NCBI GenBank assembly: GCA_030629775.1
Contig: DAOVOJ010000001.1
Location: 1 to 37,481 of the forward strand
DNA from: Candidatus Moraniibacteriota bacterium
GTDB taxonomy: Bacteria; Patescibacteriota; Minisyncoccia; JAHIHE01; DAOVOJ01
Direction: 5' to 3'
Length of the DNA stretch: 37,481 nt
The notes beneath the pieces were generated by a model. It saw only the letters and a program-made list of their open reading frames with translations. It was not told where the DNA came from and searched no databases. A program made the translations under genes and the position numbers. Positions 2,838 to 35,702 of this stretch are shown here, piece by piece (position 1 is the stretch's first letter; every line of letters starts with the position of its first letter).

Positions 2838-3032
2838 TGTCATTCCGAGCGACGATGGCCCTTTTTGTCATTCCGACCGAGCGACGATAGGAGCGAGTGG
2901 AGGAATCTGCCAGCAAGAAAAGCGTGTGTTTTAATAATGTCTTTATTAGAAATAAGTATTTCGTGTTTACAGATTCCTCCACTCCGTTCCTTCTTCGGCT
3001 ATCGCCTCAGGGTCACTTCGGTCGGAATGACA
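2838..3032. repeat. TGTCAT...ATGACA hairpin element with a duplicated left end
   Basis: A partial left end lies at 2838..2858 (tgtcattccgagcgacgatgg) and a full left arm starts at 2866. The right arm cagattcctccactccgttccttcttcggctatcgcctcagggtcacttcggtcggaatgaca ends at 3032. Confidence 0.85.
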
Positions 3033-4435: not shown

Positions 4436-4596
4436 CGTCATCCTGAGCGGAACGGAGCGATAGCGGAGTGGAGTCGAAGGATCCCTGTGCGACAATTCTA
4501 AGAGCTGTCAGGAAGGGATCCTTCGGCTCGTTCCTCGCTCAGGATGACGGTGTGAGAAGACGGGATTCTTCGGCTCCTATCGTCGCTCAGAATGAC
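4436..4596. repeat. TGTCAT-family hairpin element plus an extra solo right end, atpA/atpG spacer
   Basis: gtcatcctgagcgg...ggatccc // gggatcc...cgctcaggatgac (4436..4547), followed by gggattcttcggctcctatcgtcgctcagaatgaca (to 4596). Confidence 0.85.
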
Positions 4597-4619
4597 AAGT
4601 TTTTGCTCCGTTATCATTT

Positions 4620-7941: not shown

Positions 7942-8202
<261 letters not shown>

Positions 8203-8226
8203 TTAAAATTATAAAATGGTTATGTT

Positions 8227-8991: not shown

Positions 8992-9037
8992 TTAAACAGT
9001 TAAGTTAAACTGATTTTTCCTCCTTATTAACAGAATT

Positions 9038-9066
9038 AGTTTACACTAGTTTTTTGGATAAGTCAA
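9038..9066 (-). promoter_or_regulatory. Candidate atp operon promoter
   Basis: The minus strand reads TTGACT-N17-TAAACT. The -35 element abuts the inverted repeat at 9066..9170. Confidence 0.35.
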
Positions 9067-9170
9067 CCCCGTTCTTAAATTTACAAAACTGTTTAGTAGT
9101 GGCTAACTATTTTGAATTGCTTCGGGTTATTTTGTCGTATAATTCTTTGTTGTAAATTTAAGAACGGGGT
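9066..9170. repeat. Perfect 21-bp inverted repeat with a 63-nt spacer
   Basis: accccgttcttaaatttacaa (9066..9086) is the reverse complement of ttgtaaatttaagaacggggt (9150..9170). Confidence 0.85.
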
Positions 9171-9194
9171 CAAGTTATATTAACATTTTTATAA

Positions 9195-9226
9195 TTCCCC
9201 TCTCGGGAGGGGGTTGGGGGAGGGTT
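9195..9226 (+). repeat. G-box copy
   Basis: ttcccctctcgggagggggttgggggagggtt. Confidence 0.8.
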
Positions 9227-9256
9227 AAATTAGCGCGAGGCGGAAATCCCCTTTCC

Positions 9257-9450
9257 GTCATTCCGGAAAATTTCGGAGTGATAACGGAGAAATTTATCCG
9301 GAATCCACTGTTTCGTTATGCCTTTTTAGAAATAATAAGCGAGTGGTAAAATGGCAATCTTAGTTGTAGCAGTGGATCCCAGATATTTTTTCTGGAATTT
9401 ATGCTGATGAAAATCAGTGCTATCGTTCCAGAAAAAATTCTGGGATGACA
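9257..9450. repeat. TGTCAT-family hairpin element
   Basis: gtcattccggaaaatttcgg...ccggaatccactg ... cagtggatcccaga...ttctgggatgaca. The inner boundary ggaatccact resembles the GIY-YIG copy. Confidence 0.75.
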
Positions 9451-9515
9451 AATTTTTCTGTTACCAGGAGGCTTTATTTCTCGGCTGTTCAATGTTTCTA
9501 TGTTAAAATGTTTAT

Positions 9516-10362: not shown

Positions 10363-10579
10363 TGTCATCCCTGAACTAAATTCAGGGCAGGCTCTGAGCG
10401 AGGCACGAGTCGAAGGATCCCGTGGTACGCGAAGAGAGTTGTTGTACAACACTAGATGAAACTAACACGGGATTCTTCGACTCCGCTCCGCTCCGCTCAG
10501 AATGACAGTGTGAGGACACGGGATTCTTCGGCTCCTAAAGCCTGCCCCGTACTTCGATACGGGGTCGCTCAGAATGACA
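10363..10579. repeat. Composite TGTCAT-family element (one left end, two right ends)
   Basis: tgtcatccctgaactaaattcaggg... with right ends ...cgctcagaatgaca at 10507 and 10579. Confidence 0.8.
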
Positions 10580-14869: not shown

Positions 14870-15059
14870 GATAATAAGTGAGAGCGGCGTACCAAATTTG
14901 TTGGTATGAACTTCAGTAACCGTTCAAAAAAGGTTCACGTTTTATTTGGCAATTGCGACAAAAAATTAATCTTTTAACTCAGATGTTCTTTGTGATGTTG
15001 TACTTTGGAATAGAATTTAAGTGTATTAGAGTTCATTTTAAATTCAAGCTAACAATTTT

Positions 15060-15159
15060 CTTACCCTCTCCAACCTCCCCTCAACCCTCTCCCAATTTTC
15101 CAAAATCCCCACCCAAACCACCGGGAAATTGTTCCCAACTATATCCCGGCGCCCCGACA
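15060..15159 (+). repeat. Direct repeat A (island junction, ends in the tRNA-Pro 3' fragment)
   Basis: About 90 of 100 positions are identical to 23299..23398 by hand alignment. The last 17 nt equal the tRNA-Pro 3' end. Confidence 0.85.
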
Positions 15160-15204
15160 CTTTAGAAAAAGCAACTCTGCGAGGGGTTGTTTTTGTTTTG
15201 TTGC

Positions 15205-15233
15205 TTGAATTATTAGTGGTTTAATGATAACAT
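15205..15233 (+). promoter_or_regulatory. Candidate promoter of the methylase-nuclease-methylase operon
   Basis: TTGAAT-N17-TAACAT, about 50 nt upstream of 15285. Confidence 0.3.
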
Positions 15234-15284
15234 AAGAGCAAGGAAAAGGGGAGGGGATTTTGATTAGAAAATAAAAGACTAACT

Positions 15285-16067
15285 ATGCCAATTTTTAATG
15301 ATATTGATTTAAAAAATTGGAAAGAATCAGAAATTTGGACTGATAGTTTGTGGATGATTTCAGAACGGGATAAGTCAGGAAAACACAGCAATTTTTATCA
15401 CGGAAATTTTGTTCCACAAATTCCACGCCAGTTTATCTTGCGATACACAAAAAAGAACGATATAGTGCTTGATCCATTTGTTGGAAACGGAACAACCGCC
15501 TATGAAGCAGAGAGCTTAAAAAGGAATTTTATCGGGATTGATATTCAAAAAAGTTTAATAAATAAAATCAAAAAGAATTTAGATCAAAAGAATAATCTTT
15601 TTGAATTATTGACTGGTGATAGCGCAAATAAAAATACTTTTGAGCAAGTAAAAGAAATTTTTAAAAAACATAAAAAGAAAAATATTCAGCTGGCAATTTT
15701 ACATCCGCCGTATGCGGATATAGTAAAATTTAGCAGTCATAAAGAAGATTTGTCTAACGCAAAATCATTAAAAGAATTTTTAAGCAAATTTTCACAAGTT
15801 TTGGAAAATGCTATTTCAATTTTAGAAAGAAGTAGATATTTAATTATTGTTATTGGTGATAAATATACAAAAGGTCAATGGATTCCTTTAGGATTTTATT
15901 GTATGAATGAAGCGCAAAAATTGGGATTAACTTTGAAAAGTGTTATTATAAAAAATATGGAGGGAAATCGCGCTAAACAAAACAAAGAAGGTATTTGGCG
16001 ATACCGCGCGCTTTCAAGCGATTATTATATTTTTAAACATGAATATATTTTAGTTTTTAAAAATTGA
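15285..16067 (+). CDS. SAM-dependent DNA amino-methyltransferase (N6-A or N4-C)
   Basis: Motif I VLDPFVGNGTTAYEAESLKRNFIGIDI lies upstream of motif IV ILHPPYADI. A motif X-like FVPQIPRQFI precedes motif I. Confidence 0.75.
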   Translation: MPIFNDIDLKNWKESEIWTDSLWMISERDKSGKHSNFYHGNFVPQIPRQFILRYTKKNDIVLDPFVGNGTTAYEAESLKRNFIGIDIQKSLINKIKKNLDQKNNLFELLTGDSANKNTFEQVKEIFKKHKKKNIQLAILHPPYADIVKFSSHKEDLSNAKSLKEFLSKFSQVLENAISILERSRYLIIVIGDKYTKGQWIPLGFYCMNEAQKLGLTLKSVIIKNMEGNRAKQNKEGIWRYRALSSDYYIFKHEYILVFKN

Positions 16068-16071
16068 AATT

Positions 16072-17241
16072 ATGACAACACATGTATTTATAGTTGATTC
16101 AAAAACATTTAAACTTCACTTAGAGTATCTTTTTGCTGGAACGGGAGCGAAAGATAACCATATTGATTTTAATAACTCGGAAACGACTACTTTACATCAC
16201 ACAAAAGAGAATATATTAGCAGGTATGATTGCTGATGCAAACAGAATAAGACGAGGCGACCAAATAATTTTTTATTTACAGCAAGATTTTTCTAAAAAAA
16301 TATTTGAGGGTAAATTTTTCGGCATATTTACGGCTAAAAGTGATTGGTCTTTTTTAGATAATAATGATCATAATCAATATTTAGGCAATGAGCTTGGAAA
16401 ATCTTTAACATTCAGAACTATTATTGAACCATATAAAGTTTATTCCGAAGGTGTGACAGAATGGGAAGCGCTAGATGAAATAAAGAATATACAATCCCCG
16501 AATCAAATGCTTTGGAGTTTAATTTATCGTAAATTAAAAGGCAATCGTGGAAATACCATGATAACTATTTATGAGTCTGAAAGGTTGTGTCAATTAATTA
16601 GGGATAAAAATTCTAGACAAGAGATTGATGTTAATAATCGTAAGCTGACATTTGATCAAGATAGTCAAAAAATAATTTTAACTTCAGAAAATATAAATGA
16701 TTATATTGGAAGAAGGGAAGAAATGGATTTACTTCCGAGATTAATGGCTAAATATCAGGAGAATAAGTCATTTGAAACTCATCTACAGGCTTATATTGTA
16801 AGAAATATAGGGAAAGGAGTAAACGAATCGCTTGATAATTATGTTTTGGGACAAAATCTTGAGTTTGAATGGCTTGGAAATGAAGTGTCTTGCGGTGTTG
16901 GCATGCAAAGAATCGATATAATGATTTCAACAAATATAAACGATCAAAGAATTTTAATACCAGTAGAATTAAAATCAGTTGAAGCTGATGTAGTTAATGT
17001 AAAACAGATACAAAGATATATTGATTGGATAGAGCAATATTATACCCCTAACAGGCAAAGTGACATACAGCCAGTTTTGATTTCTAAAAAAATAAACAGT
17101 AAGAGCACGGAAAAATACCAAAGAATTATTGCCACTTTTAACGATTTCAATACTCAAAATTCTAGAAGGTGTAGTAATTTAAAATATATTGAGTATCATT
17201 TAGAAGATGATAACTTGATTTTTGAAGAAATAAATTATTGA
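16072..17241 (+). CDS. Putative restriction endonuclease: N-terminal PUA/EVE-like region plus C-terminal PD-(D/E)xK core
   Basis: It is tightly packed between two methylases (4-nt and 2-nt gaps). The C-terminal GMQRIDIMIS...ILIPVELKS fits D...ExK. The N-terminal HVFIVDSKTF...RRGDQIIFY...GKFFGIFTAKS resembles PUA-like reader folds, but weakly. Confidence 0.5.
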   Translation: MTTHVFIVDSKTFKLHLEYLFAGTGAKDNHIDFNNSETTTLHHTKENILAGMIADANRIRRGDQIIFYLQQDFSKKIFEGKFFGIFTAKSDWSFLDNNDHNQYLGNELGKSLTFRTIIEPYKVYSEGVTEWEALDEIKNIQSPNQMLWSLIYRKLKGNRGNTMITIYESERLCQLIRDKNSRQEIDVNNRKLTFDQDSQKIILTSENINDYIGRREEMDLLPRLMAKYQENKSFETHLQAYIVRNIGKGVNESLDNYVLGQNLEFEWLGNEVSCGVGMQRIDIMISTNINDQRILIPVELKSVEADVVNVKQIQRYIDWIEQYYTPNRQSDIQPVLISKKINSKSTEKYQRIIATFNDFNTQNSRRCSNLKYIEYHLEDDNLIFEEINY

Positions 17242-17243
17242 TT

Positions 17244-18323
17244 ATGAACTATATCGGTTCTAAATTATCACTTCTTGAATTTTTAGAAAATTCAATTAAT
17301 AAAGTAGTTAACAAAGACTGCCATGTTTTTTGTGATTTATTTGCTGGGACTGGAATTGTTGGGAATTATTTTAAAAAGAAAGGGTATAAAATAATCGCTA
17401 ATGATATTCAATATTATAGCTATGTTTTAAATAAACATTATATTGAAAATCACAAAGAATTAATGTTCTCAAAGTTAATAAGAGAATTATCTGAATTAAA
17501 AAAAGTAAAAACAGAAAACAGAAAAGATTTTGTTTGTGATTATTTGGAAAATTTAAAAGAAGTTAAAGGATTTGTTTATAAAAATTATTGTTTAGGCGGA
17601 ACGGAAGATAGAGAAATACAAAGGCAATATTTTTCAGACGCAAACGGAATGCGATGTGATGCGATAAGAAAGAAGATTGAAGAATGGAGAAAAGAGAAAT
17701 TGATAAATAATAATGAATATTATTTTTTGCTAACAAGTTTAATTGAATCAGTTGATAAATGCGCGAATACTGCTTCTGTTTATGGTGCATTTTTGAAAAA
17801 ATTAAAAGAATCCGCGCAAAAAAGTTTTGTTTTAAAACCAGCTGAATTAATTATTAATGATCAAGAACATAAAGTTTATAATGAAGACATAAATGTTTTA
17901 ACAAAAAAAATAAAAGGGGATATTCTATATTTAGATCCTCCATATAATCACAGGCAATATGCGTCAAATTATCACATACTTGAAACAATCGCAAAATATG
18001 ATAATCCCAAAATTCATGGCAAAACTGGATTAAGAGATTATGAAAATCAAAAGTCATTATATTGTTCTCGCGTGGAAGCAAAAAATGCTTTTAAAGATTT
18101 AATTTCAAAGGCAAAAGTAAAATATATCTTTTTAAGTTATAACAACGAAGGAATAATGTCTTTAGAAGATATAAAAGAAATTATGAGTTTGCGCGGGGAG
18201 TATGGACATTTTACAAAAGATTATAACAGATTTAAGGCAGATAAAAATAGAAATTATAAAGCAGACAGAACAGTTGAATATTTACATTATGTTGTTTGTG
18301 ATTCTGCAAAAATTGGTTTATAG
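17244..18323 (+). CDS. Dam-family (D12 class) N6-adenine DNA methyltransferase
   Basis: N-terminal MNYIGSKLSLL, motif I FCDLFAGTGIVG and motif IV LYLDPPYN. The ATG at 17244 is preferred over the TTG at 17238. Confidence 0.85.
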   Translation: MNYIGSKLSLLEFLENSINKVVNKDCHVFCDLFAGTGIVGNYFKKKGYKIIANDIQYYSYVLNKHYIENHKELMFSKLIRELSELKKVKTENRKDFVCDYLENLKEVKGFVYKNYCLGGTEDREIQRQYFSDANGMRCDAIRKKIEEWRKEKLINNNEYYFLLTSLIESVDKCANTASVYGAFLKKLKESAQKSFVLKPAELIINDQEHKVYNEDINVLTKKIKGDILYLDPPYNHRQYASNYHILETIAKYDNPKIHGKTGLRDYENQKSLYCSRVEAKNAFKDLISKAKVKYIFLSYNNEGIMSLEDIKEIMSLRGEYGHFTKDYNRFKADKNRNYKADRTVEYLHYVVCDSAKIGL

Positions 18324-18344
18324 CTCTCTCAAAATTTACATAAA

Positions 18345-18369
18345 AAGAGGAATAAGATCCTCTTTTTTT
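18345..18369 (+). terminator. Rho-independent terminator after the methylase
   Basis: aagagga-ataaga-tcctctt followed by T5. Confidence 0.6.
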
Positions 18370-18422
18370 GTACTTGTTTTTACTGTTCTATGTATGTTTT
18401 GTATTTTATGATGTAAAAATCC

Positions 18423-18450
18423 TTGACATATATTTTATTTATGCTAATCT
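18423..18450 (+). promoter_or_regulatory. Candidate promoter giving a leaderless lexA-like mRNA
   Basis: TTGACA-N16-TAATCT. The A of the ATG (18457) lies 7 nt after the -10, and there is no SD. Confidence 0.4.
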
Positions 18451-18456
18451 ATAAAT

Positions 18457-19137
18457 ATGGAGATTTCAAAGCTTACTAAAAAACAACGAAAAGTATTCAA
18501 TTTAATAGAGTCGTATTTTAATAAATATGGCTGTTCTCCTACAATCACTGAATTAAAAGAAGCATTAGCCGTCAATTCTTTACGAACTGTTGTTCAATAT
18601 CTTGAAGCACTAGAGAAAAAAGGATTTATTTATCGCAAACATAATCAAAAAAGAGGCATAGAGCTTGCAAACATAGGAACGACAACGGATTTTGACACGA
18701 TATTATTGCCAGTCGTTGCGTCTGTTGGATGCGATGATGCAAGCATATTCGCGGATGAAAAAATAGATGAATATATAACCATAGATAAAAATTTTATTCC
18801 AGGTGGGAAAAGTATTAAGGATATGGTGGTGGTTAAAGCAATAGGCGCGAGTATGCAAGAAGCGGGAATCAGTTCAGGCGATTATATATTAGTAGAAAAA
18901 ATTAATACTGCACAGGCGCAAGAAAATGATCGCGTGGTAGCAATAATAGATGACAATATTGTTATAAAGAAGCTTCATTTTGCAGAAAATGCCATAATTT
19001 TAAATCCCGAATCAAAAAACAAACACTACAAACCGATAATAATGAAAAGAGATTTTTATATTCCAGGGCGGGTAGTGGATGTTATTAAAATGAAACCTGA
19101 TTTAGAAATTAAATATATACCAATAGAAAATAATTAA
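18457..19137 (+). CDS. LexA-like repressor (winged-helix DNA-binding domain plus S24 autopeptidase)
   Basis: N-terminal CSPTITELKEALAVNSLRTVVQYLEALEKKGFIYR is LexA_DNA_bind-like. Also present are a VGCDD cleavage-site region, Ser in GASM and Lys in VIKKL. Confidence 0.8.
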   Translation: MEISKLTKKQRKVFNLIESYFNKYGCSPTITELKEALAVNSLRTVVQYLEALEKKGFIYRKHNQKRGIELANIGTTTDFDTILLPVVASVGCDDASIFADEKIDEYITIDKNFIPGGKSIKDMVVVKAIGASMQEAGISSGDYILVEKINTAQAQENDRVVAIIDDNIVIKKLHFAENAIILNPESKNKHYKPIIMKRDFYIPGRVVDVIKMKPDLEIKYIPIENN

Positions 19138-19154
19138 CTAATCTAATTTAAAAC

Positions 19155-19406
19155 ATGGAAAATAAAGAAAGAGCCGTTGAGGCTTTAGAAAAAATTGAAA
19201 AGGTAATTGACGAAATAAGAGATATGTTCCCTGATATCAAAAAAGAGCAGATTAAAATTTTTGTTAAGAATAAGAAATATAATGATCCTGTTAAAATATT
19301 AAAAAAAGTTGATAGGATAATTATAAATTATAACGAAAGCAACGCTGAAAGAAAATTGGAAAGTCTATTAGGATTTTTAGGTATCACTGTTAAAAAAGAA
19401 AAATAA
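19155..19406 (+). CDS. Hypothetical 83-aa helical protein
   Basis: The ORF starts 17 nt after the lexA-like stop and is co-oriented. No family recognised and no SD. Confidence 0.45.
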   Translation: MENKERAVEALEKIEKVIDEIRDMFPDIKKEQIKIFVKNKKYNDPVKILKKVDRIIINYNESNAERKLESLLGFLGITVKKEK

Positions 19407-19464
19407 AAAACTAAATTGGAAAGTTTTAAGGGTTTTAGAGCATGAAATAATAAAAAATTTTGAT

Positions 19465-19490
19465 AAAACAATTAATAGAATAATTGTTTT
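19465..19490. promoter_or_regulatory. Perfect 10-bp palindrome upstream of the 1190-aa gene
   Basis: aaaacaatta-atagaa-taattgtttt. It could be an operator or a weak terminator. Confidence 0.3.
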
Positions 19491-19535
19491 CTTAGAAAGT
19501 AAAAATAATTAAACAATATTTAAGTATTTAAAATA

Positions 19536-22500
19536 ATGGATAATATAAGCCAAATCATTTCACCAGACCAATTTTCTAAACTTTGTAAGCATCTTTTTGC
19601 TGCTGAATTTGATGATTTTCAAACTATTGATGATAGCGGTGGCGATAAAGGAAATGATGGGTATTCAGAAAAGCAAAAAACACTTTTTCAACTTTACTGT
19701 CCCAAAAAACCAAACAAAGCAACTGATTCAAAATGTAAATTAAAAATAAAAGAGGATTTGGATAAAGCAAAAGAACTTGTTGATTCTGGAAAATATATTA
19801 TTGAAAAATGGATTTTTGTTACCCCCGCGGAACTACGAGAGGATGTTCATACTTATATTAGAACAGAGGCTGCGGAGAGAGGGTTTATTGGTATAGCGTG
19901 GGCAAGTCCCAAGTTGACAGTATTTTTTACAAATCATTCCAATTTACGAAGTCAATTTCCAGATTTAATTCAGCCAGACATTGAACAGAAAATAGATTTA
20001 TTAGATTTAAAAATTACAGGGCATACGGAATCAGTCAACGATGTCAAGAGGAAATATCGAACGAAGTTGGAACAAAATTATCAACGGCGTATTGACGAAG
20101 CAAGGATAAAAATAGATGATGAAAAAAACGAAGCAGCAAAAAAGGAATATGAAACAATTTTAAGAGATTTAAATTCGGAATCAGAAAAAATAGACCCGCA
20201 TCTTTTTTTTCGAGTTCATAATAATTTAGGTGCTTGTGAATTAAATCTCGGAAACACAAGAGAAGCAGCGAAATTTTTTGAAAAAGCTTATTCGTTTAAA
20301 CCAGACCAGTCAATAGCAATTGCGAATTATGCTTTATCAAAATCCTTAAAAGATAATCCAAAAGAAGGGCTGGTAATAATTGAAGATCTGTTAAAAAAAC
20401 ATCCTACTGATAATCACGCAATTTCTGTTAAGGCAAATATTCTGTACACTTTAGAAAGATATGAAGAGTTGATACCATTCCTGAAAGAAAAGGGCAAAAC
20501 AGCGTTGTCGTGCTGGTATGAGGGATTTGAAGCAATGTCCAAGGATGACTACGATACCGCAATTTTCTGCTTTGAGAAAGTTATTCATCTTGAACCAAAA
20601 AATATTAAAGCGTACTTTTTAGCTGCTCAAAATGTCATGATTGGGTCAAGAGAATTTGTTAAAAATAATGCTTTCCTGCCGGATAAAATACCTTCCGCTA
20701 TAAAAGAAAAATTCACGAAAGCTATTTCTTGGTTAAAAAGGGCAGTTGAACTTTTACAAGACAAGGAACAGAACAAGGAACAGAAAGCTGATTTAGAGAT
20801 GGCATATACTAATTTATCTGGCTGCTTTGTTGCTCTTGGTTTATTTGATGAGGCAATTGAATTTGCGTTAAAAGCTATCTCTATTGATCCCATATCTCCT
20901 ACCCCTTTTCTTAATAAGGGGATAGCTCAACTAAAACTTGGTAAGCATAAAGAAGCAATAAGTAGTTTTAAAAAATATAAAGATTTAGGAGGAGACGAAT
21001 TTAGCGTGGATAGACACAGTGCTTTTTGTTCTTTGAGAACTGGTGATTTAGATACCGCGGAAAAAATAATTATTCCCTTACTAGAACAAGAAAAAGATTT
21101 AGATTTGGATGTTGCAGAACTTGGAGTGGAGTTATATTCAAAAAGATTGGACAATGACAAGTCAGAAGCATTATTAAAAAAACTGGAAGAAAACTTTTCT
21201 GATAATTCTCAAGCGTTACGAATTCGTGCCGCACATCTTCAGAGATTGGGAATGTCGGGCGTGGAATTATTACTTCAGAAGGCATTGGAAAGCTCAAAAT
21301 CAGAATCGGAAAAAATGTTGACTGAAATGGATTTAGCTGATTTCTTATATAGCACAAAAGATTATTCCCGTGCTGCAGAAATATATCGGAAATATATCAA
21401 CATTGAAGAAACAACTACGGGAACTCTTAAATATGCTGAATGTCTATATAATTCAGGACAGTATGGAAATCTCTTAAAATGGATAGATACATTAGGCACA
21501 TCTGTGCGTAAACATTCTTTAATTCAACAGGTAGAAGCGTATTCGAATCTTTACTTGGGTAATCTTGAAAAAGCATCATCTTCTTTTAGAAAACTTTTTG
21601 AAAAAACCTCAGACAATCTTAAATACCTCGTATTTTATGGAATGTGTAGATTTAGACTGGGCAAAGAATATGAGGCAAAAAAAGCTTATGACGCTGTAAG
21701 AAATAGAGTAACTGAAACTGACGATGTTGTGATATTATCGGGCGGTTATGAATTTATCGGGGAACGGAAAATTGCATTGGAGCTTACTTATAAAGCTTTA
21801 GAAAACGATTCTAATAATCCAAAAGCTCATCTTGCTTACATTTTTACATTTTTACGTAGGGAACAGGCGGGAGGAAAAGATTTTGAAGATAAATATGTAA
21901 AACTATTTCAAAAATCAATTGGCGAATTTAGTAAAAGGTTTCCCGAAGAAAAAGCGCTACAAACTTTCGAAGTAAAAGATAAAGGCATCGGTCCCATGTT
22001 AAAAATGGCTGATCAGTTAGCAGAGTCAACAGAAAATGCAACTGGGCTTTATAGAGAATCCAAGGTTCCGCTTGCTGTTATCCCAAAGTTTACAAACAGA
22101 AAACCATTTGATGTCTGGGCTGCCTTTACTCAAATGCCAGATGTTGGGATAAAAATTTTATTTGGCTCGCCAGACGAGCTTTCAACAGAAGCTTTAACAA
22201 TTAAAGAGTATTGCGACAATTCTATTGTTGTTGATATTTATCCATTATTTCTTCTGACTCACTTTAATCAGCTTGAATTATTATCAAAACTATTCAAGAA
22301 AATTTATGTGCATCAAAGTGTAATTGATGAATTAACAGAATCAATCGACGAGCATAGAATTTCGGTGCGCAAAGGACAAACAATTTTTGGAAAAATTGAT
22401 GGTCAGCACAAGTTAATTGATATTTCTCCAGAACAAGTACAAAAAACAGTTGCTTCGTTAGAAAAAATTAGAGATTTTTTAAGCAAGGATAAATCTTGCG

Positions 22501-23108
22501 AAATTCACGGATTATCCAAAGAAAGGTCGGGAGATGAACGCAATTTAATTAACGCTCTTCATGAAACAACAAAAAATAGCATTTTTCTTGCTGAAGATCT
22601 TAATTTGCCCATTTATTGTGATGACCGCATATTGCGAGTTATTTTAAAAAATGAACACAGAGTAAAATCTTTCTCTACTCAATCTTTAATCAATTTAGCA
22701 CAAATAAAAGGGGTAATATCGCTTGATAAGCGATTTGAGTTACAGAAAGAAATGATAGGACTTAAATATGAATTTCTTCCAATAGATGCGACTTTTATAT
22801 ATTATTTTTTAAAAAAGGCAAGCTATAAGATAGAGAAAATACAAGATATAATCTTTACACTTGTGCAAAAAGAAACAAGTATTCAATCTTTGGAAGTGGT
22901 ACTTGCTGATCTTTTCTTTCTACTTTTAATTGAACGGTTAATAGACAACAAAACAAAACTTAAAATATTTAGGAGCATATTATCGCAAGCTTCGTTAAAC
23001 CACGATTTAGATAATATAGAAGAAGGAATTTTTATGAATCTTCAAAAAAAAGTAAAACCTGAAAAGCATAAACAATTAAAAGATATGCTTAAAATTATTT
23101 TTTCGTGA
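19536..23108 (+). CDS. 1190-aa protein: Mrr-like nuclease-type N-terminus, long TPR array, PIN-like C-terminal domain
   Basis: The N-terminus FSKLCKHLFAAEF..IDDSGGDKGNDGY..LFQLYCPKK resembles the Mrr-cat pattern. Residues ~230-800 contain many 34-aa TPR-like units (e.g. AAKFFEKAYSFKPD, AIFCFEKVIHLEPKN, AIEFALKAISIDP). The C-terminus has IVVDIYPLF, VIDELTE and AEDLNLPIYCDDRIL in PIN-like acidic spacing. No P-loop seen. Confidence 0.6.
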   Translation: MDNISQIISPDQFSKLCKHLFAAEFDDFQTIDDSGGDKGNDGYSEKQKTLFQLYCPKKPNKATDSKCKLKIKEDLDKAKELVDSGKYIIEKWIFVTPAELREDVHTYIRTEAAERGFIGIAWASPKLTVFFTNHSNLRSQFPDLIQPDIEQKIDLLDLKITGHTESVNDVKRKYRTKLEQNYQRRIDEARIKIDDEKNEAAKKEYETILRDLNSESEKIDPHLFFRVHNNLGACELNLGNTREAAKFFEKAYSFKPDQSIAIANYALSKSLKDNPKEGLVIIEDLLKKHPTDNHAISVKANILYTLERYEELIPFLKEKGKTALSCWYEGFEAMSKDDYDTAIFCFEKVIHLEPKNIKAYFLAAQNVMIGSREFVKNNAFLPDKIPSAIKEKFTKAISWLKRAVELLQDKEQNKEQKADLEMAYTNLSGCFVALGLFDEAIEFALKAISIDPISPTPFLNKGIAQLKLGKHKEAISSFKKYKDLGGDEFSVDRHSAFCSLRTGDLDTAEKIIIPLLEQEKDLDLDVAELGVELYSKRLDNDKSEALLKKLEENFSDNSQALRIRAAHLQRLGMSGVELLLQKALESSKSESEKMLTEMDLADFLYSTKDYSRAAEIYRKYINIEETTTGTLKYAECLYNSGQYGNLLKWIDTLGTSVRKHSLIQQVEAYSNLYLGNLEKASSSFRKLFEKTSDNLKYLVFYGMCRFRLGKEYEAKKAYDAVRNRVTETDDVVILSGGYEFIGERKIALELTYKALENDSNNPKAHLAYIFTFLRREQAGGKDFEDKYVKLFQKSIGEFSKRFPEEKALQTFEVKDKGIGPMLKMADQLAESTENATGLYRESKVPLAVIPKFTNRKPFDVWAAFTQMPDVGIKILFGSPDELSTEALTIKEYCDNSIVVDIYPLFLLTHFNQLELLSKLFKKIYVHQSVIDELTESIDEHRISVRKGQTIFGKIDGQHKLIDISPEQVQKTVASLEKIRDFLSKDKSCEIHGLSKERSGDERNLINALHETTKNSIFLAEDLNLPIYCDDRILRVILKNEHRVKSFSTQSLINLAQIKGVISLDKRFELQKEMIGLKYEFLPIDATFIYYFLKKASYKIEKIQDIIFTLVQKETSIQSLEVVLADLFFLLLIERLIDNKTKLKIFRSILSQASLNHDLDNIEEGIFMNLQKKVKPEKHKQLKDMLKIIFS

Positions 23109-23298
23109 TTTACATAGTTTGCATAGTTAATAGAAAAAATAGAAACTGTTCACTCAAAAAAAATTTGGACTTTTGTAAAAAACGAGACAAAATCTCATTT
23201 TGCACTTATATAGAACTGTGTAATTTCGATTCTGTTTAATCTGTTTTTTATATGTGCAAGAACCATAATATTATTTCTTTTCCTTGGTTAATAAGCTG

Positions 23299-23398
23299 CT
23301 TATCCTCTCCAACTTTCCCTCAACTCTCTCCCAATTCTCCAAAATCCCCACCCAAACCATCGGGAAATTGTTCCCAACTGTATCCTGTTGCCCCGACA
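23299..23398 (+). repeat. Direct repeat B (distal island junction with a degenerate tRNA-Pro 3' fragment)
   Basis: Aligns with 15060..15159. It ends atcctgttgccccgaca. Confidence 0.85.
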
Positions 23399-23412
23399 GA
23401 TTGAATTACGAA

Positions 23413-23448
23413 GAAGTCTGGCTTTCTGTAGGAAGCCAGGCTTCTTTT
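23413..23448 (+). terminator. Strong terminator hairpin directly after the distal repeat
   Basis: gaagtctggctt-tctgtagg-aagccaggcttc (12 bp, one G.U) followed by TTTT. No + strand gene ends nearby, so it may be the displaced tRNA-Pro terminator. Confidence 0.55.
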
Positions 23449-23658
23449 GATTCGTGCTTGTTTGATAATTTATGAATAAATTCGTGTATATTTTGGATTT
23501 TTGTGGAAAAACCAATGGATTGGTCATTATATTATAATTGTGATACAATTGTAATATAACACTGAGAAATACTGCTGGAGCTTAAATTAAATTTAAGTTG
23601 AGGGTTGTATGGTTAGTGATCATTTATTATCCAGAATGTGCTGGGCTAATACAAGAAT

Positions 23659-24642
23659 ATGAATTACACGGATAGAATTTATGGAGAGGTTGAGATTATG
23701 GAGCCGGTGGTTTTGGAGCTGATAGAAAGTCCGACGCTTCAAAGGTTGAAAGAGATAGATCAAGCCGGTTATTTTGAACCGTATAATCCGGGCACCGCTC
23801 ACAGCCGTTTTGAGCACTCTTTGGGAGTGTTTTGTCTTTTGAAAAAGTATGGCGCTTCTCTTGAAGAGCAAATCGCGGGACTGATTCATGATGTTTCGCA
23901 CTCCGCTTTTTCTCATTGCGTTGATTATGTTTTAGATGTTGGTTCCGAAAAAGAGCAAAATCACCAAGATAATACTTTTAGAAAATTTGTGGAAAAGTCG
24001 GAAATACCCGCGATACTTGAAAAATATAATTTAGATCCGGATTATATCTTAAACGATAAGAACTTTCCACTGGAAGAAAAAGAATTGCCTGATTTGTGCG
24101 CGGACAGAATTGACTATTCTTTAAGAGCAGCGGTTATTTTTAGAGAGATAAACATTGATAATTTAAATTATTTTCTTAACAGTTTAGTCACAAAAAATAA
24201 GCAGTGGCTATTTAAAGACTTTGAAAGCGCGAAAAAATACGCTGAATTATTTTTTAAGTTAAATAAAAAATATTATTCGGACATATATTCCGCGGTGATG
24301 TTCAGAACTGTAGGCGATTACTTGAGATATGCTTTGCAGAAAAAGTATATTTCCGAGAGTGATCTATATACGACGGATAAAATAGTGTTGTCAAAAGTTG
24401 GAAATTATCTGGAAAAAGATAAGAAGTTAAATTTTCTTTTTGATAGAATGAACAATAAAATTAAATTCAAAAACGACCCGGAGAATTACGACGCTCAGGT
24501 GTTTTGTAAATCAAGAGCCGTGGATCCGCTTTGCGATCACAACGGCGAAGTAAAGCGAGTTTCCGAGGTAGACGCAAGTTGGAAAGAAATATTAAAAAAC
24601 GAATTAAAACCAAAAGAGTATTTTATAAAGTTTGATAAATAA
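23659..24642 (+). CDS. HD-domain phosphohydrolase (COG1078 / SAMHD1-like group)
   Basis: Contains PTLQRLKEIDQAGY, HSRFEHSLGV, GLIHDVSHSAFSH and CADRIDYSLR. Confidence 0.8.
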   Translation: MNYTDRIYGEVEIMEPVVLELIESPTLQRLKEIDQAGYFEPYNPGTAHSRFEHSLGVFCLLKKYGASLEEQIAGLIHDVSHSAFSHCVDYVLDVGSEKEQNHQDNTFRKFVEKSEIPAILEKYNLDPDYILNDKNFPLEEKELPDLCADRIDYSLRAAVIFREINIDNLNYFLNSLVTKNKQWLFKDFESAKKYAELFFKLNKKYYSDIYSAVMFRTVGDYLRYALQKKYISESDLYTTDKIVLSKVGNYLEKDKKLNFLFDRMNNKIKFKNDPENYDAQVFCKSRAVDPLCDHNGEVKRVSEVDASWKEILKNELKPKEYFIKFDK

Positions 24643-24862: not shown

Positions 24863-24937
24863 ATTATAAAACACAGGTGTTATACTGTAAAAAATTACAA
24901 ATCCAAAATCACTTTGAATTACGGAATACATTAAAAT

Positions 24938-25047
24938 TGTCATCCTGAACTTGTTTCAGGATCTGTCATGTGCTACATTATGCTTTTATATTTATCTTAA
25001 AGCTAAATATAACAGACGACAGATCCTGAAACAAGTTCAGGATGACA
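24938..25047. repeat. TGTCAT hairpin element with perfect 30-bp terminal inverted repeats
   Basis: tgtcatcctgaacttgtttcaggatctgtc ... gacagatcctgaaacaagttcaggatgaca. Each arm holds its own small palindrome. Confidence 0.9.
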
Positions 25048-25095
25048 GTTAAAGTTTATTTTGTAATTTTGAATTTGGTGCTTTTAGAATATTTC

Positions 25096-25707
25096 ATGAA
25101 ACAGCTCATCAACGATCTTATCCAGCAAGGCTATCTTAAATCTCCTCGCATTATTAACGCTTTCAGAAAAATAAAACGGGTTGATTTTGTGCCGGAGGAA
25201 TTGAAAGGTGAGGCGGACATCAACGCGCCTTTGCCGATCGGCTACGGGCAGACGATCTCTCAGCCGCTGACCGTCGCTTTTATGCTGGAGTTGCTTGAAC
25301 CGAAAGAAGGTGATAAAATACTGGACGTTGGGTCTGGTTCGGGATGGCAGACGGCGTTGTTGGCGGAGATAGCGGGCGAGAAAGGAAAAGTTTACGCTGT
25401 TGAAAGAATTCCCGAACTGAAAATTTTTGGCGAAAATAACGCTAAAAAATATCATTTTAAAAATGTAAAATTTATTTTAGGAAACGGTTCAAAGGGCTTG
25501 GAAGAAGAGAGCCCTTTTGATAAAATTATTGTCGCCGCCGCGGCCAGGGGCGGAATTCCCGAAGAATTGAAAAGGCAGTTAAAAATTAATGGGCGATTAG
25601 TTATTCCGGTTGAAGGCAGTATCTGGCTGGTTGTCAAGGAGGATGAAAATAAATTTACCGAGAAAGAATTTCCCGGATTTGCTTTTGTACCGTTGGTAGG
25701 GGAATAG
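25096..25707 (+). CDS. pcm: Protein-L-isoaspartate O-methyltransferase
   Basis: Contains GYGQTISQP and ILDVGSGSGWQTALLA. The track start at 25042 is the atgaca terminus of the preceding repeat, so ATG 25096 (MKQLINDL) is preferred. Confidence 0.88.
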   Translation: MKQLINDLIQQGYLKSPRIINAFRKIKRVDFVPEELKGEADINAPLPIGYGQTISQPLTVAFMLELLEPKEGDKILDVGSGSGWQTALLAEIAGEKGKVYAVERIPELKIFGENNAKKYHFKNVKFILGNGSKGLEEESPFDKIIVAAAARGGIPEELKRQLKINGRLVIPVEGSIWLVVKEDENKFTEKEFPGFAFVPLVGE

Positions 25708-25730
25708 TGAAGTGGGAATTACATGTTCAC

Positions 25731-25888
25731 TGTCATTCCGACCGAAGTGACCCTGCGGTGATAGCCGAAGAGGGAACGGAGTGGAGGAATCTGTAAACAT
25801 AAGATGCTTGCTTTTGAATAAAAATAATTGAAACACACATTTTATCCATTGACAGATCCCTCGGCTCCTATCGTCGCTCGGGATGACA
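25731..25888. repeat. TGTCAT hairpin element
   Basis: The left arm differs at 2 positions from 1259..1319. The right arm cagatccctcggctcctatcgtcgctcgggatgaca is of the 4552..4596 type. Confidence 0.85.
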
Positions 25889-25927
25889 AGTTAAAACGTG
25901 TAATTCACAATTCCATATTCTGTTATT

Positions 25928-26944
25928 ATGATAAAAAAAATAATCTTATCAATTATTATTCTGTTTTTTCTGTTTGCTATTATTGTCGCAGCCGGTTGTT
26001 TTTATATTGAGAACAAAATTAACCGGCCGTTCAGCGATAATAATATCCAAAAAGAATTTGTTATTGAAAATGGACAGGGAGTTAAAAAAATCGCCGCGAA
26101 TTTAGAAAAAGAAGGTTTAATTACCGGAAGCGATTATTTTGAAATCTATGTCTGGCAGAAAAAAATCGCCTCTCAGCTTCAGGCGGGAAAATATAGTTTA
26201 AGCGCGTCAATGGCCATTCCGGAGATCGCCGATCTTTTCGCGGGAGGGCAGATAAAATCAAACGAAGTTCAAGTGACCATTCCGGAAGGATTTACTCTTG
26301 ATGAAATTGAAAAGCGTCTAATAAAAAAGGAATTAATTAAAGAAGGGGAGTTGCTGGAGAATAAATTAATAAATTTTTCTCAGTATAGTTTTTTGGGGGA
26401 TAAAATAAATGGCGGAAATTTAGAAGGTTTTTTATTTCCCGATACGTATAAATTTTATCAGGAAACCACCGCTGAAAAAATTATTGAGAAAATGCTGAAT
26501 AACTTTGACAAAAAATTGTCTTTTGAAATAAGAGAAGAAATAAAAAAGCAAAATAAAACTGTTCTTGAAATAATAATTCTGGCGAGTATAATAGAAAAAG
26601 AAGCGGGGCGGGAAGAAGATATGAAAAAAGTTGCCAGCGTTTTTTTGAATCGTTTGGCGGCTAACCATCCTTTGCAATCAGACGCGACGATAAATTATGT
26701 CATCGGCGAGGGGAGAAGAAAAGCCAGCTATGAGGATCTACAAATTGATTCGTTGTATAACACTTACAAATACAACGGCCTGCCGCCGGCGCCGATCTGC
26801 AATCCCGGACTGAACGCTATCAACGCGGTTGTCTATCCCGCTAGCACAGATTATTTTTATTTCCTAACTGATCCGGAAGGCAAAGCGTATTTTGCCAGAA
26901 CCTTTGAAGAACATCAGAGGAATAGAGTGGAGTATTTGGACTAG
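25928..26944 (+). CDS. mltG: Endolytic murein transglycosylase MltG (YceG-like)
   Basis: N-terminal TM helix, plus LEGFLFPDTY, ILASIIEKEA, VFLNRL, LQSDATINY and YNTYKYNGLPPAPICNPG. Confidence 0.9.
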   Translation: MIKKIILSIIILFFLFAIIVAAGCFYIENKINRPFSDNNIQKEFVIENGQGVKKIAANLEKEGLITGSDYFEIYVWQKKIASQLQAGKYSLSASMAIPEIADLFAGGQIKSNEVQVTIPEGFTLDEIEKRLIKKELIKEGELLENKLINFSQYSFLGDKINGGNLEGFLFPDTYKFYQETTAEKIIEKMLNNFDKKLSFEIREEIKKQNKTVLEIIILASIIEKEAGREEDMKKVASVFLNRLAANHPLQSDATINYVIGEGRRKASYEDLQIDSLYNTYKYNGLPPAPICNPGLNAINAVVYPASTDYFYFLTDPEGKAYFARTFEEHQRNRVEYLD

Positions 26945-26952
26945 ACAATGTT

Positions 26953-27401
26953 TGTCATTCCTGCGGAGGCAGGAATCCACTATTACTATGAGCTTTGCCA
27001 TTTGACTATTTCCCTATTATTTCAAGAAAGGCATTAAATATGGTTACTGAAAAACAATATTATGTTTATATTCTTGCAAGCAGAAAAAACGGCACCTTGT
27101 ATGTTGGCGTAACAAACGATTTACTTAGAAGAGTCTATGAACATAAAAACGATCTCATTGAAGGGTTTACAAAAAAATATAAAGTTCACAAACTTGTTTA
27201 TTATGAAGAAATTAATGATGTTCGCATTGCTATTCAGAGAGAAAAGCGAATAAAAAAATGGAAAAGGGAATGGAAAATAAATTTAATTGAAAAACTTAAT
27301 TCTAAGTGGGGAGATTTATATTATGATTTGCTTAACCAATAAATTTTTAGAGTTTATTAATATTTAAGGTAGTAGTGGATCCCTGCCTCCGCAGGGATGA
27401 C
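26953..27401 (+). mobile_element. TGTCAT-family element carrying a GIY-YIG nuclease gene (candidate autonomous copy)
   Basis: The termini tgtcattcctgcggaggcaggaatccactattac and gtagtagtggatccctgcctccgcagggatgac are inverted repeats of the same subtype as the ORF-less copy at 6633..6749. Confidence 0.65.
27040..27342 (+). CDS. GIY-YIG nuclease superfamily protein (small stand-alone, UPF0213-like)
   Basis: YYVYILASRKNGTLYVGVTNDLLRRVYEH...KLVYYEE...AIQREKRIKKW shows the GIY/YIG pair, the Arg and the Glu of the fold. ATG 27040 is preferred over TTG 26995. Confidence 0.85.
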   Translation: MVTEKQYYVYILASRKNGTLYVGVTNDLLRRVYEHKNDLIEGFTKKYKVHKLVYYEEINDVRIAIQREKRIKKWKREWKINLIEKLNSKWGDLYYDLLNQ

Positions 27402-27449
27402 GAGAAGAGGCGTGGGGCGGGAGTATTTATAATAATTAAAAATAACAGT

Positions 27450-28310
27450 ATGAAAATAAAAGCCGTTAAACCAAAAATTTGGAATTTTGAAGTTGTTAAG
27501 GGGGAGGATGCTTGGAAAGAAGTGGTCTATTCCGCCAGAATGAGCGGGGTGCCTCCAACTGTTTCAGGAGAAGATGTTTTTAAAATGATTATTAAAAATG
27601 ATTACGGTTCGGCTTTGGAGCATATTATTATCAAATTTGATATTCAAATGACGAAGGGAAACGCGCCTGAACTTCTGGAACACCGAATGGCAAGCCACTC
27701 CGGTTTTTCAACGAGATATATTCAGGCAAATAAGGGAATGGAAAAGAAAGAGCCGGTTTATGAGATCATTGTTCCTTTTCATCTTCTGGATGACCAGAAT
27801 CAGGAATCTCAGAGAATTTTTTTGGAAAAAATCGAACAAAGCATTGAGACTTACGAAAAGTTTATAAACGAAGGATTGCCACGAGAATCAGCGCGGTATA
27901 TGTTGCCATTTTGTCAAGCGGTTGGGATCTATCACTTCACGATCAATTTAAGATCTCTTTTAAATTTACTTTCTCTTCGGCTTTGCGTAAGAACTTCTCC
28001 GGAGATGCGATGTCTTGCCGCGCAGTTACATCTTAATCTGACCAAAGAACTTCCGATTATCAGGGGAATGGTCGGCTGCCGCGGTTTTGTTAAGGGGATT
28101 TGTCCGGAAGCGAATGTTACGGGTGTCAGAGAGGGAAAACAGCACCCTTTTTATCCGGTTTGCCTTTTTAAAAATCCAAAATCCGATGTTTTTATTCCAA
28201 CTCACAAAGAACTAAGAAAAGGAATAAGCACTGAGAAGTTTAATCGAGAGAAAGCGGTTGAAGCGCAGGAGAAAATTTTCGCGAAATGGGCGGAGTGGGG
28301 AGGGGAATAA
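27450..28310 (+). CDS. thyX: ThyX-family (flavin-dependent thymidylate synthase-like) protein, divergent
   Basis: LLEHRMASHSGFSTRY aligns to the ThyX RHRX7S..RY signature with E replacing the first R. ESARYMLP...NLRSLLNLLSLR matches the second conserved block. The track start at 27375 lies in the repeat terminus, so ATG 27450 is preferred. Confidence 0.7.
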   Translation: MKIKAVKPKIWNFEVVKGEDAWKEVVYSARMSGVPPTVSGEDVFKMIIKNDYGSALEHIIIKFDIQMTKGNAPELLEHRMASHSGFSTRYIQANKGMEKKEPVYEIIVPFHLLDDQNQESQRIFLEKIEQSIETYEKFINEGLPRESARYMLPFCQAVGIYHFTINLRSLLNLLSLRLCVRTSPEMRCLAAQLHLNLTKELPIIRGMVGCRGFVKGICPEANVTGVREGKQHPFYPVCLFKNPKSDVFIPTHKELRKGISTEKFNREKAVEAQEKIFAKWAEWGGE

Positions 28311-28322
28311 GTTAATTAATTT

Positions 28323-28419
28323 GACACAGACGAACACAGACTAAAGGCACTGACAAACACAGATAAAAATTAAAATAATCTGTGTTCGTCTGTGCCTTTA
28401 GTCAGTGTTTGTTAGTGTG
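28323..28419. repeat. Long imperfect palindrome between thyX and glyA
   Basis: ctaaaggcactgacaaacacagat - 13-nt AT loop - atctgtgttcgtctgtgcctttag (24 bp, 2 mismatches), with weaker extension on both sides. Confidence 0.75.
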
Positions 28420-28444
28420 CTATTTATAAACATTATAAAAAACT

Positions 28445-35071: not shown

Positions 35072-35213
35072 ATAAAAAAATTTTTAATTTCCAATTTTTA
35101 ATTTTTAATGAATTTCTAATTTCCTAATTTTCAATATTTATTCTGACAACTCCATTGCTGTAAACTAGCGATAGCTATCTTTCATTGATTTAATATAAAC
35201 GCTTTTATAACAT

Positions 35214-35242
35214 TTGTCAAAGGTGGTTTTTTGTGATAGGAT
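35214..35242 (+). promoter_or_regulatory. Candidate promoter of the tRNA-Arg/tRNA-Lys pair
   Basis: TTGTCA-N17-TAGGAT with a TGa extension, about 45 nt upstream of tRNA-Arg. Confidence 0.4.
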
Positions 35243-35284
35243 TATTTCGTTGGATAAGTTTTTCTAAACTTATCAACTAATACT

Positions 35285-35358
35285 GCACCCGTAGCTCAAC
35301 TGGATAGAGCGTCTGGCTTCGGACCAGAAGGTTGTGGGTTCGAGTCCTACCGGGTGTA
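35285..35358 (+). tRNA. tRNA-Arg (anticodon TCG)
   Basis: Cloverleaf: gcacccg/cgggtgt acceptor (G1.U72), gctc/gagc D stem, tctgg-ctTCGga-ccaga, and gtggg-ttcgagt-cctac. Confidence 0.88.
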
Positions 35359-35421
35359 CTAAATTAGTGTAAAGTCGAAAGTCTATAAAGTCAAAAGTTA
35401 AAAAATTCTAAACTTTTAAAT

Positions 35422-35494
35422 GCCCTTATAGCTCAATTGGTAGAGCAGTTGCCTCTTAAGCAAACGGTTCCAGGTTCAAGTCCTGGTGGGGGCA
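35422..35494 (+). tRNA. tRNA-Lys (anticodon CTT)
   Basis: Cloverleaf: gccctta/tgggggc acceptor, gctc/gagc D stem, gttgc-ctCTTaa-gcaaa, and ccagg-ttcaagt-cctgg. Confidence 0.85.
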
Positions 35495-35702
35495 CAGCGA
35501 TGTATAAGGTTTGTTGATTTTCTTATAATTTTTCTCTTGAGAGAGCTGTGGGGGGGGGCGTATTAAAGTTTAAATTTTTAATTTCTAATTCTTTAATTTT
35601 TAAACAGTAAGAAAAAGAAAACTAAAGATTCAAAAAGTTTAAAAATTTGAAATTAAGAATTAATTAAAAATTACAAAATTTAAAATTGGAAATTTATTCA
35701 AC

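Follow-up and report, generated by a model that had tools for sequence, protein, structure and literature searches.

The window analysed here is a stretch of 37,481 nucleotides from a Candidatus Moraniibacteriota genome (contig DAOVOJ010000001.1, positions 1 to 37,481), and our subject is a small nuclease gene within it together with the pair of hairpin repeats that encloses it, a locus we designate unit C. Unit C separates a YceG/MltG-like gene (25928-26944) from thyX (27450-28310); the closest named homologues of this ThyX (86% and 79% identity) come from metagenome-assembled genomes of Patescibacteria. The gene, ssn, is a plus-strand open reading frame (ORF) at 27040..27342, stop codon included, that encodes a single-domain GIY-YIG nuclease of 100 aa. 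The Pfam GIY-YIG domain PF01541 covers residues 6-81 with an E value of 9e-17, and no second domain is detected. The gene lies between the arms of a 33-nt inverted repeat (26954-26986 and 27369-27401), which are 91% complementary and 382 nt apart, the left arm ending 54 nt upstream of the ORF and the right arm beginning 27 nt downstream of it. A preliminary description made from the letters of the window had recognised a GIY-YIG ORF bracketed by inverted termini at this place, and both the arms and the domain are indeed found there.

Each arm consists of YGTC, followed by a hairpin with an 8-bp stem and a 4-nt loop, followed by CCACTAYTAC. The left repeat (26953..26986, plus strand) reads TGTC, then the hairpin ATTCCTGC-GGAG-GCAGGAAT, then CCACTATTAC, has a folding energy of -7.5 kcal/mol and carries its 5' YGTCAT outward. 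The right repeat (27369..27402, minus strand) is inverted, and on the minus strand reads CGTC, then ATCCCTGC-GGAG-GCAGGGAT, then CCACTACTAC.

Assignment to the Ssn nuclease family

The Ssn family, first described in 2025, contains the first site-specific endonucleases known to cut single-stranded DNA (ssDNA) only. The sequence recognised in Neisseria, named NTS, is CGTCATTCCCGCGMAVGCGGGAATCYRG, a superset of the repeat dRS3, and has been generalised to 'Ssn-related motifs' (SRM; Chenal et al., Nat Commun 2025, PMC11893778). SsnA itself is a 94-aa single-domain GIY-YIG protein (CDD cd10448, GIY-YIG_unchar_3) that binds the NTS solely as ssDNA and cuts the same strand a few nt upstream; it has no action on duplex DNA, on RNA or on the complementary strand, and an RNA version of the motif is left unbound by the N. 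meningitidis (Nm) enzyme (PMC11893778). Cleavage is governed by the GTC upstream of the palindrome, the top base for binding is the C right after it, and Nm SsnA is sensitive to the sequence of the stem, while mutagenesis has shown Y6, Y17 and E64 to be catalytic (PMC11893778). Neisseria and Wolbachia enzymes have been characterised, and the cut position varies by one or more nt between Ssn homologues (PMC11893778). The only in vivo role demonstrated for the family is in N. meningitidis, where SsnA reduces transformation by NTS-bearing DNA (PMC11893778). This work was found via the resemblance of our repeats to dRS3; literature searches pairing GIY-YIG proteins with miniature inverted-repeat transposable elements (MITEs), transposases, repetitive extragenic palindromic (REP) sequences, their hairpin-forming doublets (REPINs) or YhbQ/COG2827 returned nothing relevant.

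For comparison, we took N. gonorrhoeae SsnA (94 aa) from NZ_CP119140.1 (L089, 2.17 Mb), a chromosome filed among plasmid records. It aligns to the window protein over 93 gap-free positions with 54% identity (E 9e-38), and a tblastn search of the window with it gives a single match at E 3e-32, the criterion used in the original study being 1e-10 (PMC11893778). N. gonorrhoeae SsnA has the same Y6, Y17 and E64 as described for Nm SsnA, and these align to Y10, Y21 and E68 of the window protein, all three being invariant across 32 diverse homologues. An AlphaFold model of the window protein (predicted local distance difference test score, pLDDT, 93) shows one compact domain with the GIY-YIG fold. 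Its nearest solved structures are the UPF0213 protein BH0048, Slx1 and the N-terminal domain of UvrC, with approximately 20-25% identity to UPF0213/Slx1; a sequence search of the PDB with the window protein gave no match, and no Ssn structure is present there. An NCBIfam scan of the protein returned just a sub-threshold match to a group I intron endonuclease. Identity as a homing endonuclease was considered and rejected: the protein has no extra domain, its gene is intergenic with no intron or intein, and it has no phage homologues (no ssn homologue was found by tblastn against 50,697 phage records). As an aside, ssnA of NZ_CP119140.1 is unannotated in the PLSDB table, and complete chromosomes of Neisseria, Sinorhizobium, Aeromonas and others are likewise filed as plasmids in the same collection.

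The repeats point to the same family. Of the 28 positions of the Neisseria NTS consensus, the arms of unit C match 23, and two of the five mismatches together form a compensatory change of a C-G stem pair to T-A. Every repeat unit that we located in the window retains YGTC, the stem foot AT(T/C)C...G(A/G)AT and the C that follows; since these are the positions that mutagenesis showed to matter (PMC11893778), we count their retention as support for SRM identity. Both arms are also kept at the orthologous loci L086-L088. On the left, conservation sets in sharply from TGTCAT inward, and on the right, one compensatory change (A-T to G-C) is found in the inner 10-nt inverted repeat. Between the window ssn and its L086 orthologue, the ratio of non-synonymous to synonymous substitution rates (dN/dS) is 0.065 at a dS of approximately 0.97, the arms having remained nearly unchanged meanwhile. 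This ratio indicates that purifying selection on the window gene is strong, and its locus is stable.

On this evidence it is highly probable that the locus is an Ssn-SRM unit, an SsnA-type ssDNA endonuclease gene between two inverted cognate hairpin repeats, with a behaviour like that of REPINs and their REP-associated tyrosine transposases (RAYTs). The preliminary description had proposed a partnership between the small GIY-YIG protein, as the nuclease, and the TGTCAT...ATGACA hairpins, and was right; such a partnership is experimentally established for the family (PMC11893778). Its further remark that this is not an established type of element is out of date, given that both the pairing and the analogy to insertion sequences (IS) and RAYTs were already in print (PMC11893778). 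What the window adds is modest: a member from the Patescibacteria, a phylum not mentioned in the Ssn paper (PMC11893778), a stem variant to which the published pattern is blind, several hairpin variants alongside one visible gene, and concrete cases of insertion and turnover.

A number of observations weigh against the assignment. The published strict SRM pattern misses both arms of unit C, in which the stem is CCTGC/GCAGG; it does so solely because one stem pair is T-A, not C-G, and for this reason repeats were located by inverted-repeat detection instead. At the N. gonorrhoeae ssnA locus, the SRMs nearest the gene are oriented opposite to those of the window, and an outward orientation is thus not universal. 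It is also unlikely that the five or more hairpin variants of the contig are all served by one enzyme, because Nm SsnA is stem-sensitive; tblastn with N. gonorrhoeae SsnA detects no second ssn gene in the 37-kb window. For the window protein itself, finally, ssDNA-specific cutting is predicted from homology. Biotechnology has an interest in Ssn enzymes, whose specificity may differ from one enzyme-hairpin pair to the next.

SRM units in the window and around homologous genes

A structural scan combined with direct reading of the window located at least 8 units of the form YGTCAT...ATGACR (E, G, A, B, H, D, F and C, in order along the contig) and 3 solo or partial units, more than the preliminary description had counted. 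The ssn gene is present in unit C alone, the 7 other units being ORF-less. A degenerate pattern for the termini matched exactly 4 unit ends, as against 0 in 100 shuffles, and the strict SRM pattern has 2 matches in the window, as against 0.025 expected. Both of these are the ends of doublet A (6633-6749, 117 bp), the right one sharing 26 of 28 positions with the Neisseria NTS consensus; the description of this doublet as an ORF-less copy with the layout of unit C is borne out. The inner boundary that the preliminary description also reported for doublet B (9256-9450) is found as well. Its boundaries are YGTCAT...GGRATCCACTG, and it shares with unit C the outer YGTCAT and the inner GGAATCCACTG / CAGTGGATCC; its terminal hairpins are different and longer (45 and 71 nt) and unrelated to each other.

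The remaining doublets are likewise ORF-less. Doublet E has its SRM pair at 2866-3032 with a truncated left unit adjoining at 2838-2865 (2838..3032 overall). Doublets G (SRM pair 4436-4549, 4436..4597 overall) and H (SRM pair 10363-10507, 10363..10579 overall) are each accompanied by a solo right-end unit on the minus strand, at approximately 4562-4597 and 10520-10579 respectively. Doublet D (24917..25068, SRM pair 24938-25047) has the hairpin ATCCTGAAC-TTG-TTTCAGGAT, which also flanks the ssn gene of a Saccharimonadales locus (L021), and its inverted repeat reaches approximately 20 nt past YGTCAT at both sides. Doublet F (25702..25920, SRM pair 25731-25888) is of a weak-hairpin 'GAGCG...CGAAG' type with the outer inverted repeat GAATTACRYGTT / AACRYGTAATTC. 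The extra solo right-end units of G and H have a likeness elsewhere, in that one or two extra tandem solo right-end SRMs stand downstream of the ssn units L026 and L045 (one alphaproteobacterial contig, approximately 3400-3480 in each), one-sided ends resembling those of bacterial interspersed mosaic elements.

As ssDNA, the doublets are predicted to fold very stably (z about -7 to -14; for doublet A, -36 kcal/mol and z about -9 to -10). A, D and C each form one long hairpin, and B forms a four-way junction as a result of its two end hairpins being unrelated. The idea that an ssDNA four-way junction might be the general substrate of an Slx1-like junction cutter was dropped, the junction occurring in B only. 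The inner 10-nt inverted repeat of unit C is not general either, the median inward extension being 5 nt.

To see how far the arrangement extends beyond the window, we assembled 80 genomic loci, their encoded homologues having 57-74% protein identity to the window protein, from Patescibacteria, Spirochaetes, Planctomycetota, Omnitrophota, Nitrospirales, Alpha-, Beta- and Gammaproteobacteria, Bacteroidota and others. An inverted YGTCAT...ATGACR pair brackets the gene in 42 of the 80, with ends 350-820 bp apart and a median arm of 28 nt, equal to the length of the NTS. The stems differ between genomes, yet match between the two ends of each unit; on a Parvibaculum contig, two ssn paralogues 1.9 kb apart each have their own matched pair. 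Strict SRMs number at least 51 in approximately 64 kb within 400 nt of ssn, compared with 9 in 337 kb beyond 600 nt and 2 in 285 kb of unrelated control loci. Since the bracketing recurs in 42 of 80 homologues, it is a trait of the gene family and not an accident of the window locus. The published survey had found at least one nearby SRM in 71% of homologues, an SRM on both sides in 42%, and a homologue encoded by 81% of the genomes having more than 200 SRMs (PMC11893778). The flanking termini and the presence of the gene in repeat-rich genomes, both of which the preliminary description had put forward as checks on its proposal, are thus in its favour.

The repeats also leave marks on gene calls and assemblies. 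The longest mechanical thyX ORF (27375-28310) takes a GTG start within the right arm of unit C and runs through the repeat (MDPCLRRDDEKRRG...); on the twin contig L081 the gene is called from the ATG at 27450, which is the true start. SRM hairpins can in this way generate spurious N-terminal extensions such as the 311-aa GTG-start version of thyX, which is relevant to genome annotation, and some overlong ssn homologues (126-155 aa) probably owe their length to the same read-through. Among short contigs from sister samples that carry an identical ssn gene (L082-L085), a contig end lies within approximately 100-190 nt of the gene, consistent with assembly breaks at SRM repeats. Recognition of these repeats explains spurious ORFs and contig breaks in assemblies of the Candidate Phyla Radiation (CPR).

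Other features of the window are unrelated to SRMs. Inverted repeats with no YGTCAT are found at 28311-28431 (54-nt arms, between thyX and glyA), 6128-6198, 9058-9178 and 35074-35698, and include a AATTACTTATTAACGGATT-type palindrome, a repeat with 29-nt arms and AT-rich arms around a tRNA cluster; the genome holds several unrelated families of hairpin repeats. The cumulative GC skew has its minimum near 8 kb (window 7000-9500), with long ORFs on the minus strand up to about 8991 and on the plus strand from 9516, and this could be a replication origin or another switch point of strand bias. A stretch of low GC content at 15000-24600 (26-34%, compared with 37-45% elsewhere) encodes a Dam-like D12 methyltransferase, a LexA/S24-like protein and a 1190-aa tetratricopeptide repeat protein, as transferred from the annotation of L081, and may be an acquired island.

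Mobility and competing explanations

By homology with the Neisseria and Wolbachia enzymes, the monomer of approximately 100 aa would disregard duplex DNA and RNA and bind an SRM once this is single-stranded with its palindrome folded, recognising the stem together with the GTC directly 5' and the C directly 3' to it, and would hydrolyse the SRM strand a few nt 5' of the motif. For unit C, the cleavage zones predicted in this manner are 26947..26952 on the top (plus) strand, with the cut approximately 3 nt 5' of YGTCAT at 26949/26950, and 27403..27408 on the bottom (minus) strand, with the cut at about 27405/27406. As both SRMs have the 5' YGTCAT outward, the predicted nicks fall just outside the unit; each strand would be cut once, at its 5' side, and this is insufficient for excision. 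We infer a resident, vertically inherited nuclease that nicks transiently single-stranded DNA in the manner of the RAYT/REPIN systems. One effect would be the restriction or trimming of SRM-bearing ssDNA that is demonstrated in Neisseria transformation. A second, over evolutionary time, may be that SRM doublets, and now and then the gene-bearing unit, are copied, relocated and turned over, with the joining step supplied by host recombination or replication and not by Ssn.

The mobility of the IS-like NTS-ssnA-NTS unit was raised, and not tested, by Chenal et al., who likened it in their discussion to an insertion sequence and to the domestication of IS200/IS605 and REP/RAYT (PMC11893778). The window and its relatives offer concrete cases, in the form of a gene-bearing unit and a gene-less doublet within a ribosomal-protein operon and of different doublets at one orthologous spacer. 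Proteins 80-87% identical to that of the window, with matched SRM arms, occur in three unrelated contexts: between YceG and ThyX (window, L086-L088), between rpsQ (S17) and rplN (L14) inside the ribosomal-protein operon (L090, L092), and in a type IV pilus cluster (L094-L097). The S17-L14 spacer of L090, which holds the ssn unit, measures 558 nt, the median of 75 other S17 loci being 35 nt. In the same operon, an ORF-less F-type doublet occupies the L16-L29 spacer, which measures 286 nt compared with a median of 20 nt for 37 loci, and 80 control ribosomal-protein loci (285 kb) contain no such doublet. In the orthologous PCMT-YceG spacer, the doublet is F-type in the window and D-type in L086, the window's own D-type copy lying upstream of PCMT. 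An ORF-less D-type doublet stands upstream of thyX in L180 and none does in L178 or L181. F-type copies at unrelated sites in two genomes (the window and L090) have 16-18 nt in common outside YGTCAT/ATGACR, and D-type copies at different intergenic sites (the window and L086) have approximately 25 nt in common outside the SRMs. This homology beyond the SRMs suggests that the moving unit can exceed the SRM pair.

The ribosomal-protein operon of L090 (800-7800) is rich in repeats of other kinds. Nearly every spacer contains a palindrome that belongs to a different repeat family (ACATATAAACATATAAAC...ATGTTTAAATGTTTAA, or TTGTTATGCATAGC types), and beyond the SRM doublet and the ssn unit, the spacer at 7165-7410 contains a long GC-rich hairpin.

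It could be supposed that the SRM-ssn-SRM unit is an autonomous transposon with the GIY-YIG protein as its transposase, and that the ORF-less doublets are MITEs mobilised in trans by excision and reintegration. The preliminary description had proposed such an autonomous element and MITE pair. The IS-like layout with 28-33-nt terminal inverted repeats would fit, as would the termini and some subterminal sequence held in common with the ORF-less doublets; the insertions in the ribosomal-protein operon and the turnover of doublets between relatives stand as evidence for movement, and protein conservation of 57-80% identity across phyla suggests horizontal spread. We nevertheless consider this doubtful. 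Same-genome ssn paralogues have diverged (87% and 72% nt identity), and one syntenic locus has been held through a dS of about 1 under the purifying selection described above. The characterised enzymes hydrolyse one strand on one side of the motif, giving a single cut and no excision, and the D- and F-type homology 16-25 nt past the SRMs implies that SRM-adjacent cuts do not delimit the moved unit.

Some of the results weigh against the mobilisation part of our own Ssn-SRM interpretation as well as against a transposon. A survey of 50 elements revealed no target-site duplication, 2-8-nt direct repeats being no commoner than chance. The flanks of these elements have a recurrent Y/R base at -1/+1, with a weak excess of complementarity (a palindromic tendency) in the next few bases. 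An identical protein (P0115) is encoded on 14 contigs, always in one context. No nucleotide-level empty site was found via S17, metagenome relatives there having at most 70% identity; no strict one was found via ThyX, where relatives of 75-86% identity have other upstream genes. We know of no strand-joining or rejoining activity among GIY-YIG hydrolases. The comparative data support movement only on long time scales, and an 'autonomous element plus MITE' is a hypothesis.

A broader proposal is that SRM-ssn-SRM units and gene-less doublets form a not yet established class of mobile DNA, hairpin-ended elements whose spread depends on a hydrolytic, ssDNA-specific GIY-YIG nickase, an independently evolved analogue of RAYT/REPIN in which copying is completed by host replication or recombination with no strand transfer by a transposase. 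We put this forward tentatively, as a possibility that may well prove wrong. If it were true, such activity would have left its traces in the ribosomal-protein operon, as insertions, and among related Patescibacteria, as exchanged doublets, and the real ends of the moving unit would be indicated by the 16-25-nt homology beyond the SRMs.

Ssn might alternatively serve only a host-beneficial control of ssDNA restriction or recombination, with the repeats spread by ordinary recombination or otherwise and the flanking copies merely autoregulating or marking the gene. In favour of this are the strong purifying selection and stable inheritance of the gene, and the trimming of incoming SRM-bearing single strands in transformation, the family's one demonstrated in vivo role; CPR bacteria, moreover, are thought to depend on DNA uptake. 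One close homologue (80% identical) is encoded inside a cluster of type IV pilus, pseudopilin and T2SSE genes of DNA-uptake type (L094-L097 and a 199-kb Joint Genome Institute contig), a location suggestive of a role in natural transformation, though coincidence is also possible. Restriction as the sole function leaves unexplained the matched, genome-specific inverted SRMs around about half of the homologues, the gene-plus-termini units at unrelated sites including the ribosomal-protein operon, and the flanks common to non-orthologous doublets, and we regard it as rather unlikely.

It is very improbable that the hairpins act as RNA, whether as a structured RNA, a riboswitch-like leader or a processing site: they fold strongly and vary in a compensatory manner between genomes, but an Rfam scan of the entire window returned four tRNAs only and nothing on the repeat units, the inverted pairs are strand-symmetric and stand in any orientation relative to genes, and Nm SsnA leaves the RNA motif unbound (PMC11893778). 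Coincidence, in the sense of two independent solo hairpins or terminators beside an unrelated housekeeping GIY-YIG gene, is effectively refuted, for although chance adjacency is not negligible at a single locus of a repeat-dense contig (approximately 8 units in 37 kb) and neither a sigma-70 promoter nor an intrinsic terminator was found inside unit C, the bracketing with pair-matched, genome-specific stems in 42 of 80 homologues, the density of strict SRMs near ssn far above that of distant and control DNA, the retention of both arms in orthologues with one compensatory change and the published biochemical partnership (PMC11893778) all speak against independent solo termini.

Comparison with known systems

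Neisseria SsnA/NTS is alike in having a single GIY-YIG domain of 94-100 aa, 54% identical with the same catalytic Tyr, Tyr and Glu, and a repeat made of YGTCAT, a palindrome and then ATCY that stands on both gene flanks and in many gene-less intergenic copies. It differs in that the host of the window belongs to the Patescibacteria, the stem variant lies outside the published SRM pattern, and the window SRMs face 5' outward, opposite to the nearest SRMs in N. gonorrhoeae. Moreover, at least 5 hairpin variants in the 37 kb of the window accompany one visible ssn gene, the activity of which is predicted.

Neisseria intergenic mosaic elements (NIMEs; RS units with dRS3, the palindromic NTS core, at their boundaries) and Correia-type MITEs are similarly ORF-less, intergenic and approximately 100-200 bp in length with inverted hairpin ends, and the window's ORF-less doublets resemble NIMEs and REPINs. 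Correia-type MITEs produce defined target duplications and lack a dedicated nuclease gene with such flanks, whereas the window doublets are without duplication and some have homology beyond the SRMs. Homing endonucleases of the I-TevI type and Slx1/UPF0213 proteins (YhbQ, BH0048) share the GIY-YIG catalytic fold; in contrast to these, the window protein has no DNA-binding, zinc-finger or linker domain, and its family cuts ssDNA only. As to autonomous insertion sequences, unit C shows neither a target-site duplication nor, among the contigs compared, near-identical copies at different sites, one ssn being present in the window.

The REP/REPIN-RAYT systems likewise consist of a resident, mostly vertically inherited nuclease gene between inverted hairpin repeats, accompanied by intergenic inverted doublets; there too, hairpins are recognised in ssDNA and target-site duplications are absent. 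The window gene, unlike a RAYT, encodes a GIY-YIG and not a Y1_Tnp domain, and falls outside the Y1 HUH (IS200/IS605-type) enzymes. HUH enzymes form a covalent phosphotyrosine intermediate that permits rejoining, whereas GIY-YIG enzymes hydrolyse DNA. Owing to this difference in chemistry, Ssn is not a RAYT and does not share its cut-and-rejoin mechanism. With a resident, selected gene and conserved flanking sites, as for RAYTs, the window locus resembles these systems more than it does an insertion sequence.

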